Below are positions 13,111 to 59,312 of a stretch of DNA of 64,000 nt, piece by piece. The translations under genes were made by a program, and so were the position numbers. Position 1 is the first letter of the stretch. Every line of letters starts with the position of its first letter. The notes under the pieces were generated by a model, which worked only from the letters and a program-made list of their open reading frames with translations, did not search any database and was not told the origin of the DNA. Source of the stretch: Haliovirga abyssi. Its GTDB lineage: Bacteria; Fusobacteriota; Fusobacteriia; Fusobacteriales; Haliovirgaceae. Location of the stretch: assembly GCF_030295325.1 (NCBI RefSeq), contig NZ_AP027059.1:1048637-1112636 (forward strand), read 5' to 3'.

Positions 13111-13181
13111 TTTAGGAATGGATTAAAAATAATAAAATATAAGAAACTTATTTTTTAAACGTTCTTTAGGAATGATTGATT
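13111..13181. repeat. copy b of the ~35-bp AT-rich motif (core 13137-13171) flanked by direct repeats TTTAGGAATGGATT / TTTAGGAATGATTGATT
   Basis: ATATAAGAAACTTATTTTTTAAACGTTCTTTAGGA identical to copy c; upstream TTAGGAA(T/C)GGATTAAAAATAA also matches copy a. Confidence 0.7.
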
Positions 13182-13263
13182 TTCTTTTTGTTGTTGTATG
13201 GCATTATTAACACATTATAAGATATGAGAAATTTATTTTTAAATATTTCTAAAAGGAGATAAT

Positions 13264-17539: not shown

Positions 17540-17645
17540 AGACCTCATCCCCCAACCCCTTCTCCTAACTTAGGAGAAGGGGAGTTAAATAACAAAAAAG
17601 TCCTCTCCTAAGTTAGGAGAGGATTTAGGTGATGCCTGAAAATGG
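17540..17645 (+). repeat. 106-nt GC-rich structured element, copy 1 (candidate ncRNA / REP-like element)
   Basis: Perfect 13-bp hairpin CCCCTTCTCCTAA-c-TTAGGAGAAGGGG, second 9-bp hairpin CCTCTCCTAAgTTAGGAGAGG, outer AGACCTCATC...GGTGATGCCT complementarity; ~85% identical to 59207-59312. Confidence 0.75.
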
Positions 17646-17662
17646 ATAGAATTATATTAAAG

Positions 17663-17707
17663 AAGTGTTTTTGAAGAAATTATTTTCTTTGGAAACACTT
17701 TTTTTAA
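17663..17707 (+). terminator. rho-independent terminator (17-bp interrupted stem, 4-nt loop, T7 run)
   Basis: AAGTGTTTTTGAAGAAA-ttat-TTTCTTTGGAAACACTT then TTTTTTT. Confidence 0.7.
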
Positions 17708-17750
17708 TACAATTTTTTATCATGTGGTAAAAAAGTTTTTATTATTACTG

Positions 17751-54707: not shown

Positions 54708-54748
54708 GTATAATTAAATATGAATTAAAATTTATATTTGATTATACA

Positions 54749-54783
54749 ATATAAGAAACTTATTTTTTAAACGTTCTTTAGGA
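54749..54783. repeat. copy c of the ~35-bp AT-rich motif; its 3' TTTAGGAG serves as the radA SD
   Basis: ATATAAGAAACTTATTTTTTAAACGTTCTTTAGGA identical to copy b. Confidence 0.7.
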
Positions 54784-59115: not shown

Positions 59116-59147
59116 TTCCCCTTCTTAGATTTTTTTGAGAAGGGGAA
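59116..59147 (+). terminator. GC-rich hairpin TTCCCCTTCT-(12)-AGAAGGGGAA after hflC, sharing the CCCCTTCT motif with the 106-nt element
   Basis: 10-bp stem, T6 run inside the loop. Confidence 0.5.
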
Positions 59148-59206
59148 AGCTTTATAAGAGGGACAATAGAGGGCACACTTACCCAACTTCAAAGGCATCA
59201 GGGAAT

Positions 59207-59312
59207 AGACCTCATCCCCCGACCCCTTCTCCTAATTTAGGAGAAGGGGAGTAAAAATAAAAAAATTCTATCCTAAGATAAGAGAGGATTCAGGTGAGGT
59301 CTGAAAAATGGG
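59207..59312 (+). repeat. 106-nt GC-rich structured element, copy 2 (candidate ncRNA / REP-like element) upstream of pyrB
   Basis: ~85% identity to 17540-17645; perfect 13-bp hairpin CCCCTTCTCCTAA-t-TTAGGAGAAGGGG; 10-bp closing helix AGACCTCATC/GGTGAGGTCT with one G-U pair. Confidence 0.75.

Follow-up and report, generated by a model that had tools for sequence, protein, structure and literature searches.

The triplex motif (TM) repeat (TMECO, earlier called BoxC or PIT, for potential intrastrand triplex) was described by Holder et al. 2015 (PMC4666352) and, as cited there, in earlier work by Bergler, Bachellier and Hoyne/Maher. Three blocks make up each unit: a pyrimidine block is followed, beyond a loop, by a purine block and, after a second and short loop, by a G/T block mirroring the purine one, as in CCCTCTCCCTTGAGGGAGAGGGTTAGGGTGAGGGT (PMC4666352). 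Escherichia coli K-12 carries 23 copies, all of them intergenic, and the repeat has been found in more than 260 genomes, being very abundant in cyanobacteria (PMC4666352). We have analysed a 64-kb stretch of the genome of Haliovirga abyssi, a deep-branching, AT-rich member of the Fusobacteriota (contig NZ_AP027059.1, positions 1,048,637 to 1,112,636; hereafter 'the window'), which contains two GC-rich palindromic elements. We assign these elements to the BoxC/PIT/TM family, as a non-coding repeat acting at the DNA level rather than a small RNA, with a probability of roughly 0.8, and we report that TM units in other genomes adjoin genes encoding DUF559 proteins, predicted nucleases.

As a single strand, the E. 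coli TM sequence forms a stable triple helix in vitro, as determined by circular dichroism and nuclear magnetic resonance on oligonucleotides (PMC4666352). It exhibits neither promoter nor terminator activity and leaves RNA polymerase unaffected; at five K-12 sites the units form inverted pairs, each joining a type A with a type B unit, and rearrangements among E. coli strains are commoner at TM loci than at control sites (PMC4666352). Few bacterial repeats are as widely distributed as BoxC/PIT/TM, which has been linked to local genome instability; according to the 2015 study, no mobility factor is known for it (PMC4666352).

Triplex-motif design of the two H. abyssi elements

A first-pass annotation of the window, made from the sequence alone, had pointed out two same-orientation copies of a structured element, and both were recovered with the sequences and coordinates it gave (Table 1). 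The copies lie on the plus strand, are 87% identical over about 106 nt, with similarity extending from ATAGACC to GAAAA(A)TGG, and have a GC content of 0.42-0.45, as compared with 0.21-0.32 for the window. Hairpin 1 (CCCCTTCTCCTAA-N-TTAGGAGAAGGGG, 27 nt) is present exactly twice in the 64 kb (0 expected, 100 shuffles), and 7 of the 12 CCCC runs on the plus strand of the window fall inside the two copies, with another in an isolated hairpin at 59118. Both copies fold more stably than shuffled sequence (copy 1, -44.1 kcal/mol, z = -5.4; copy 2, -38.7 kcal/mol, z = -3.8). Hairpin 2 of copy 1, given earlier as 9 bp, comes to 10-11 bp when counted.

In each element two TM units are joined head to head as an inverted pair. 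Such a unit is a hairpin with an all-pyrimidine 5' arm and an all-purine 3' arm, and its third block, of G, T and A, stands 2-5 nt beyond the hairpin. Units were scored with a mirror rule, under which a third block, following a loop of 1-6 nt, pairs G on G, and A or T on A, of the purine arm. Unit 1 follows the rule at 11/13 positions in both window copies, a score equalled by at most 1/2000 shuffles, while unit 2 is decayed in both, with scores of 6/10 (copy 1) and 8/10 (copy 2); it also reaches 8/10 in L124, a metagenomic pair described below (L numbers designate retrieved loci). Cyanobacterial and E. coli units score between 9/9 and 11/11. Arm and third block co-vary in four divergent types (GGGAGAGGG/GGGTGAGGG, GGGAGAAGGGG/GGGGATGAGGG, AAGGAGGGG/GGGGAGGTT and AAGGAGGGGG/GGGGGAGGTT); across these arm types and the window, shuffles equalled the mirror score in at most 6/2000 trials. 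Run over the full 64 kb, a strict TM finder marked these two elements and nothing else. The window copies are similar to the published unit sequence CCCTCTCCC..GGGAGAGGG-TTA-GGGTGAGGG, and the cyanobacterial pairs, as well as the unit next to E. coli ycjD (both discussed below), match published TMECO units, e.g. CCCTCGCCCCTCTGGGGAGAGGGTTAGGGTGAGGGG (PMC4666352, Table 1). By analogy with the E. coli oligonucleotides, a single strand of a window unit could double back on itself two times and so form a purine-motif triple helix.

Two features that the first-pass annotation had described were also assessed. The complementarity between the outer parts of each copy is real but secondary, as each outer block is the mirrored third block of its own hairpin, and the two outer blocks are complementary to one another because the two hairpins are alike. 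The GTG-initiated micro-open reading frames (ORFs) exist in both copies, but their peptides are not conserved: frames and sequences differ between the copies (MPENG vs RSEKWEKK) because of an indel, and no counterpart was found elsewhere. These ORFs are a by-product of the conserved GGTGAGG block, and a reading of the element as a Shine-Dalgarno sequence with a micro-ORF is not supported. Separately, a T:G mismatch serving a Vsr-like enzyme was considered as a reason for the conserved T/C difference between outer blocks, and rejected; the mirror rule fits better, the outer blocks following their own hairpins.

Only the three triplex blocks have stayed GC-rich, the loops and the spacer having drifted to A/T; the survival of these blocks alone under AT drift amounts to a natural experiment on which parts of the repeat matter. 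In copy 2, hairpin 2 has decayed to TCTATCCTAAGATAAGAGAGGA, and the outer right arm, which reads GGTGAGGTCT in copy 2, has decayed to GGTGATGCCT in copy 1. The elements were apparently acquired horizontally and are probably a dispersed repeat that is selfish, or at least non-genic; both H. abyssi copies look like passive, partly decayed passengers.

Distribution and arrangement of the repeat family

A scan of a genome collection (one genome per species) with the hairpin pattern CCCCTTCTCC-N7-GGAGAAGGGG matched at least 120 loci, those listed being mostly cyanobacterial. The matches listed also include loci from Roseiflexus and other Chloroflexi, Rhizobiales, the candidate phyla radiation (Peribacteria), Bacteroidota (Chitinophagaceae) and Leptospirae (Turneriella). 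In most of the loci listed the hairpin is preceded by CCCTCATCCCC, and in 42 cases among them the whole architecture of the window elements is repeated (CCCTCATCCCCCAG, hairpin 1, AGC..AAAGT, hairpin 2, ATTTAGGGTGAGGGC). The cyanobacterial layout, gCCCTCATCCCCCAG-[CCCCTTCTCCC..GGGAGAAGGGG]-AGC..AAAGT-[CCCTCTCCC..GGGAGAGGG]-ATTTAGGGTGAGGGC, is that of the window, and 30 pairs, from cyanobacteria and elsewhere, can be aligned with the window copies over their full length. All 42 retrieved pairs and both window copies join a CCCCTTCTCC unit with a CCCTCTCC unit, an arrangement that the search pattern itself demanded. Scanning metagenomes with the AT-type hairpin yielded 10 loci, among them single units and tail-to-tail pairs, and a pair nearly identical to that of the window on a contig of 24% GC (L124:7419-7509). 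A scan of viral contigs gave 3 matches, on high-GC contigs and with no DUF559 gene, and thus no support for a phage vector. A full-text literature search with sequence strings returned only irrelevant matches.

A covariance model built from 33 pairs detected only the two copies in the window, which scored 53 and 38 bits on the minus strand in addition to their plus-strand scores (Table 1); a marginal further match, resembling hairpin 1 only, lies at 59118-59145 (E = 1.5). The consensus fold comprises 27 pairs, with near-invariant stems, variable loops and spacer, and a covariation term of -0.81. The pairs are intergenic (1/37 lies inside an ORF), occurring between same-direction, convergent and divergent genes alike, with a mild orientation bias among same-direction gene pairs (11 co-oriented vs 4 anti-oriented). 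Units are arranged singly, in both kinds of inverted pair, in tandem arrays, and with small nested insertions.

In Roseiflexus, single TM units are repeated head to tail in tandem arrays, the periods being 72 and 108 nt (L010:5157-5400, L031:7595-7980). In cyanobacterial pairs, nested insertions of 20-30 nt (GCGATGCCCTGAGCTGGTCGAAGG, CCTAAAGCCTTCGGCATACATGAAAA, and a CCCCCCCTTTCAAAGGGGGG hairpin) are found in loops or between blocks (L014, L115, L022, L048, L068, L038, L061) and look like very small mobile repeats. Many cyanobacterial pairs are situated within a longer palindrome, GGGTGCATCCCACTTTTGCAA ... TACAAAAGTGGGATGCACCC (L016, L036, L037, L042, L090, L109, L120).

The first-pass annotation had offered a small structured RNA as one candidate. 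On such a reading, a three-way junction would be transcribed together with thrC or pyrB, the genes beside the two copies, and would stabilise, terminate or regulate the mRNA. The strong folds (z = -5.4 and -3.8) would agree with this, as would the sense orientation of both window copies relative to their adjacent genes, the position of copy 1 just before a terminator, the mild orientation bias in other genomes, and a U-G wobble kept in the outer stem on the plus strand. Set against these are a covariation term of just -0.81, an invariance of stem sequence that exceeds what structure needs, copies between divergent and convergent genes, the occurrence of single units, tail-to-tail pairs and tandem arrays, and the good score of the minus strand (53 bits), together with the published lack of promoter activity, terminator activity and effect on RNA polymerase (PMC4666352). 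No Rfam family matched the window in a gathering-score scan (0 matches), an E-value scan of the locus returned sub-threshold microRNA-like noise only, and the same database gave nothing for 14 related loci from other phyla. An RNA function is, in our estimation, very unlikely. A pyr attenuator or PyrR site at copy 2 was likewise considered and rejected, the sole Rfam match (19 bits) lying at copy 1 and on the wrong strand.

The annotation's other candidates, a repeat resembling repetitive extragenic palindromic (REP) sequences or miniature inverted-repeat transposable elements (MITEs), or a protein-recognised DNA hairpin, hold in spirit, since the elements are a dispersed palindromic DNA repeat. 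A match to a known element family, which the annotation had listed as an outcome that would count against it, was indeed obtained, with the BoxC/PIT/triplex-motif family (PMC4666352). In their classical form, REPs and REPINs are moved by RAYT, an HUH Y1 transposase, and MITEs by the DDE transposase of a cognate insertion sequence (IS). The inverted pairs, intergenic sites and mosaic units of the TM family do recall REPINs and bacterial interspersed mosaic elements (BIMEs), and the window copies end in terminal inverted repeats (AGACCTCA...TGAGGTCT). RAYT-associated REPs are, however, defined by a GT[AG]G or CGTC tag at the foot of the hairpin (PMC6006769, PMC3733652), and this tag is absent from the hairpin feet of TM units, which read CCAA, CCGA, CCAG or CTAA on one strand and AGT or AGC on the other. 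The elements are flanked by no target-site duplication or other direct repeat, and the ORFs of the 120 loci listed, whose big clusters are kinases, ABC transporters and similar, include no recurrent transposase cluster and no IS with such ends. The gene that directly abuts the units encodes DUF559, and the nucleotide sequence is conserved across phyla, unlike that of species-specific REPs. We consider mobilisation by RAYT or a DDE transposase very unlikely.

DUF559 genes beside TM units

DUF559 (PF04480) is a predicted Vsr-like nuclease of the PD-(D/E)XK type; a structure has been solved (3HRL) but is uncharacterised. At L121 (31% GC), where the hairpin is identical to that of the window, a DUF559 ORF of 119 aa (Pfam PF04480, E = 1e-31) lies between a hairpin-2 and a hairpin-1 unit, and two nearby ORF-less copies retain its 5' leader and its last 69 nt. 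DUF559 genes also adjoin units in Pelatocladus (L066) and Mesorhizobium (L003), giving 3 such genes beside about 140 hairpins, where the chance expectation is well under one. When loci were instead chosen only by protein (exact-protein look-up), a TM unit was found within about 50 nt of the gene end in 5/8 DUF559 families (L131, L140, L150, L156, L167), a roughly 36-fold enrichment of units near gene ends. In two of these (L150, L156) arm and third block are both non-canonical yet obey the mirror rule. Moreover, among the cyanobacterial-type DUF559 homologues listed, 61/120 end in C-terminal tails that are translated units (e.g. PHPPAPSPxLGEGE, PSPLVGEGAGGEG), a pattern present in 0/120 ThrC controls.

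DUF559 lies between or directly beside the two unit types at L121, L167, L066, L003, L131, L140, L150, L156 and E. coli ycjD. In K-12, the DUF559 gene ycjD extends into a degenerate unit, behind which lie a duplicated remnant of the ycjD 3' end and, next, TMECO #9. Of 5426 complete E. coli genomes, 3378 contain the ycjD 3' end and 3374 the full TM#9 locus; ycjD with its TM unit occurs in only about 62% of these genomes (L163, K-12 1351040-1351760; L164). E. coli lacking ycjD (O157-type) carry a TetR and resistance-nodulation-division (RND) efflux island between fabI and sapF; because a different island occupies the ycjD position, no clean empty site can be read there. Remnants of the ycjD 3' end, present at 1-2 places per genome, were found at none of the other E. 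coli TM sites. Our literature search found no paper connecting DUF559 with BoxC or TM, and the 2015 study mentions neither ycjD nor any nuclease (PMC4666352).

Two further associations were noted. On 16 contigs (L140-L149, e.g. L140:1700-2560) a DUF559 gene with full TM pairs on both sides forms part, in the same arrangement, of a diversity-generating retroelement, with the variable target gene on one side and bAvd/reverse transcriptase on the other. AAA_35 (PF14516) genes, some of them kinase-fused, are located a few kb from TM units in seven cyanobacterial loci (L004, L015, L034, L044, L047, L087, L115), which may merely reflect a large paralogue family.

We propose that a DUF559 nuclease would recognise and cut the TM unit, either folded or as a duplex, and that units would then be spread or lost via host repair or recombination. 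In the full-length relatives the DUF559 ORF lies between or directly beside the two units; the unit-DUF559-unit cassette would represent the autonomous form, from which thousands of ORF-less single units and pairs, the two H. abyssi copies among them, would derive as non-autonomous elements. The nuclease would then recognise the folded hairpin or triplex by its structure, and this would be why the nucleotide sequence of the three blocks is conserved across phyla. We read the window elements as an ORF-less form comparable to a REPIN or MITE, that is, as partly decayed members of a DUF559-associated repeat family; the causal role that we ascribe to the nuclease is an inference. That DUF559 is the agent behind the spread of the TM family, with the units serving as cis-acting ends or targets of previously unrecognised selfish elements, is a tentative claim, which we hold to be possible at somewhat less than even odds.

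Several observations set limits to this proposal and to the triplex and selection readings. The window contains no DUF559 gene, and none of the DUF559 homologues listed comes from H. abyssi. Each window copy includes one decayed unit, which speaks against current selection. A PD-(D/E)XK nuclease is by itself incapable of strand transfer, and neither a target-site duplication nor a clean empty site was found. Among the families chosen by protein, the nearest units lie 383 and 612 nt from the gene at L154 and 580-960 nt away at L165, and none was found near the gene at L166. Both the type and the orientation of the unit that follows the ORF vary, so that four configurations exist; the ORF itself can lie within a pair (L121, L167) or have outward-facing units on its two sides (L066, L131, L140, L150). 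Only 1/23 units in E. coli K-12 adjoins ycjD, and the approximately 38% of strains without ycjD still have a median of 16 units per genome, so that the repeats evidently persist where the gene is missing. Finally, a stable triplex was not detected in vivo in E. coli (PMC4666352).

As to the variable layout, a gene flanked by its own repeats, in the manner of RAYT genes and REPs, would fit better than a fixed transposon. The same variability would also fit insertion of a gene beside pre-existing units, as envisaged by an alternative in which the TM unit is a structural DNA motif maintained by the host (a transient triplex or hairpin that would serve as a hotspot of replication or recombination or would bind a protein) and the DUF559 link is secondary. 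DUF559 would then be a small selfish gene of the homing type that lands in or beside TM units, not their spreader. The greater rearrangement of TM loci among E. coli strains (PMC4666352), the persistence of units in strains without ycjD, and the presence of one DUF559 gene with its units inside a diversity-generating retroelement are all in keeping with this alternative. Thirty years of work have, however, yielded no host function (PMC4666352), and the window units are decaying. The DUF559 3'-end pieces in the ORF-less copies at L121 and in the ycjD remnant also tell against it, since units and ORF were, at least locally, duplicated together. Third block and arm, in addition, change with the DUF559 lineage (the L150 and L156 types). 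We regard a host-maintained motif as unlikely. The consistent adjacency to DUF559 genes offers a new lead, with a concrete and testable hypothesis and a proposed function for a large family of 'endonuclease domain-containing' proteins that includes E. coli YcjD.

Genomic context and relation to described systems

The features of the two window copies and their surroundings are compiled in Table 1. Both copies are intergenic. Copy 1 lies between thrC (encoding a threonine synthase with 100% identity to that of H. abyssi) and a gene for a sigma-54 activator, and is probably co-transcribed within the thrC 3' untranslated region (UTR); copy 2 lies between a gene encoding an SPFH-domain protein and pyrB, in the pyrB upstream region. 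The terminator that the first-pass annotation placed after copy 1 is plausible, as the hairpin there is followed by a U run. A simple terminator scanner missed it, probably since the scanner counts at most 20 stem pairs and the stem has about 25, and flagged the hairpin of copy 1 unit 2 with its T-run as terminator-like on the minus strand. The isolated hairpin upstream of copy 2 is either a relic of hairpin 1 without a third block or the terminator of the upstream SPFH gene.

Table 1. Positions of repeat copies, their units and nearby hairpins in the window (CM, covariance model).
Feature	Position	Strand	Evidence and remarks
Copy 1, head-to-head inverted pair of two BoxC/TM units	17540..17645	+	CM 88.4 bits; end-to-end alignment with cyanobacterial pairs; after thrC stop (17476), before terminator
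Copy 1 unit 1, hairpin-1 type TM, intact	17542..17582	-	TM finder; mirror rule 11/13, equalled by 1/2000 shuffles
Copy 1 unit 1, hairpin CCCCTTCTCCT / AGGAGAAGGGG	17556-17582	-	followed by loop TTG
Copy 1 unit 1, third block GGGGATGAGGT	17542-17552	-	
Copy 1 inter-unit spacer, A-rich	17583..17600		position of DUF559 ORF in full-length relatives such as L121, L167
Copy 1 unit 2, hairpin-2 type TM	17601..17638	+	hairpin TCCTCTCCTAA-g-TTAGGAGAGGA at 17601-17623; loop; third block GGTGATGCCT, partly decayed (6/10)
Long hairpin + U-run, probable intrinsic terminator of thrC transcript, outside repeat	17655..17710	+	-21.4 kcal/mol
Isolated hairpin CCCCTTCT..AGAAGGGG (CCCCTTCTTAGATTTTTTTGAGAAGGGG)	59118..59145		one of only 3 CCCCTTCT in window; 60 nt upstream of copy 2
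Copy 2, same type of pair as copy 1, SPFH-gene / pyrB intergenic region	59207..59312	+	CM 78.7 bits
Copy 2 unit 1, hairpin-1 type TM, intact	59209..59249	-	TM finder; mirror rule 11/13, equalled by 0/2000 shuffles
Copy 2 unit 2	59267..59302	+	hairpin decayed (TCTATCCTAAGATAAGAGAGGA); third block AGGTGAGGTCT intact

The GAAAA(A)TGG sequence following both copies (59303-59312 at copy 2) and the CCCAACTTCAAAGG sequence preceding copy 2 (59168-59206) resemble remnants of cyanobacterial outer arms. Elsewhere in the window, a 43-nt AT-rich segment (ATAATAAAATATAAGAAACTTATTTTTTAAACGTTCTTTAGGA) occurs at 13129-13171 and 13214-13256, upstream of fumarase genes, and again, with 95% identity, at 54741-54783, directly upstream of radA-disA and reaching into the ribosome-binding site; this segment may be a shared promoter or operator. 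GC skew is very strong and uniform over the window (0.25-0.51), long ORFs lie almost exclusively on the plus strand in the 14-21 kb and 55-63 kb regions, and no tRNA or rRNA was found in the 64 kb.

With the assignment to the TM family, two GC-rich islands find their explanation in a known repeat family, and a candidate sRNA drops out. With the published BoxC/PIT/TM repeats, the window elements share the three-block design (pyrimidine arm, purine arm and mirrored G/T third block), a nearly common core, CC(C)TCTCC..GGAGAGG(G)-(A)TTTA-GG(G)TGAGG, intergenic location, with two copies in the 64 kb where the published family has many dispersed copies across genomes, and inverted pairs of two unit types in which the loops vary and the blocks are conserved. 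They differ in their host, a 27% GC member of the Fusobacteriota, in the replacement of loops and stem tops by TAA/TTA, and in the decay of one unit in each copy. Furthermore, the window pairs are head-to-head, with the third blocks outermost, whereas the E. coli pairs of the published Table 1 are tail-to-tail, and the published work reports no associated gene, whereas units here adjoin DUF559 genes.

Two described systems are comparable to the association with DUF559. Vsr-like (EDxHD) homing endonucleases, such as I-Bth0305I and the free-standing genes of 'fractured genes' (PMC3239194, PMC2677866), likewise combine a small PD-(D/E)XK domain of the Vsr branch with a selfish gene. They home, however, into introns, inteins or specific host genes, whereas DUF559 is a separate Pfam family, with predicted nuclease activity, that is tied to a dispersed repeat. 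REP/REPIN-RAYT systems (REPtrons) share with the TM family short palindromic units that occur singly, in inverted pairs and in mosaics, as well as a low-copy nuclease-type gene that is flanked by its own repeats and whose ORF reads into them. In contrast to REPs, TM units lack a GTAG or CGTC tag, are conserved across phyla, and possess a mirrored third block, and the associated gene encodes a Vsr-like PD-(D/E)XK protein, DUF559, rather than an HUH Y1 transposase. If the proposed role of DUF559 is true, it would account for the origin of the repeat family, a question standing since the early 1990s, and the DUF559-TM system would be a counterpart of REP-RAYT built on a different nuclease fold.

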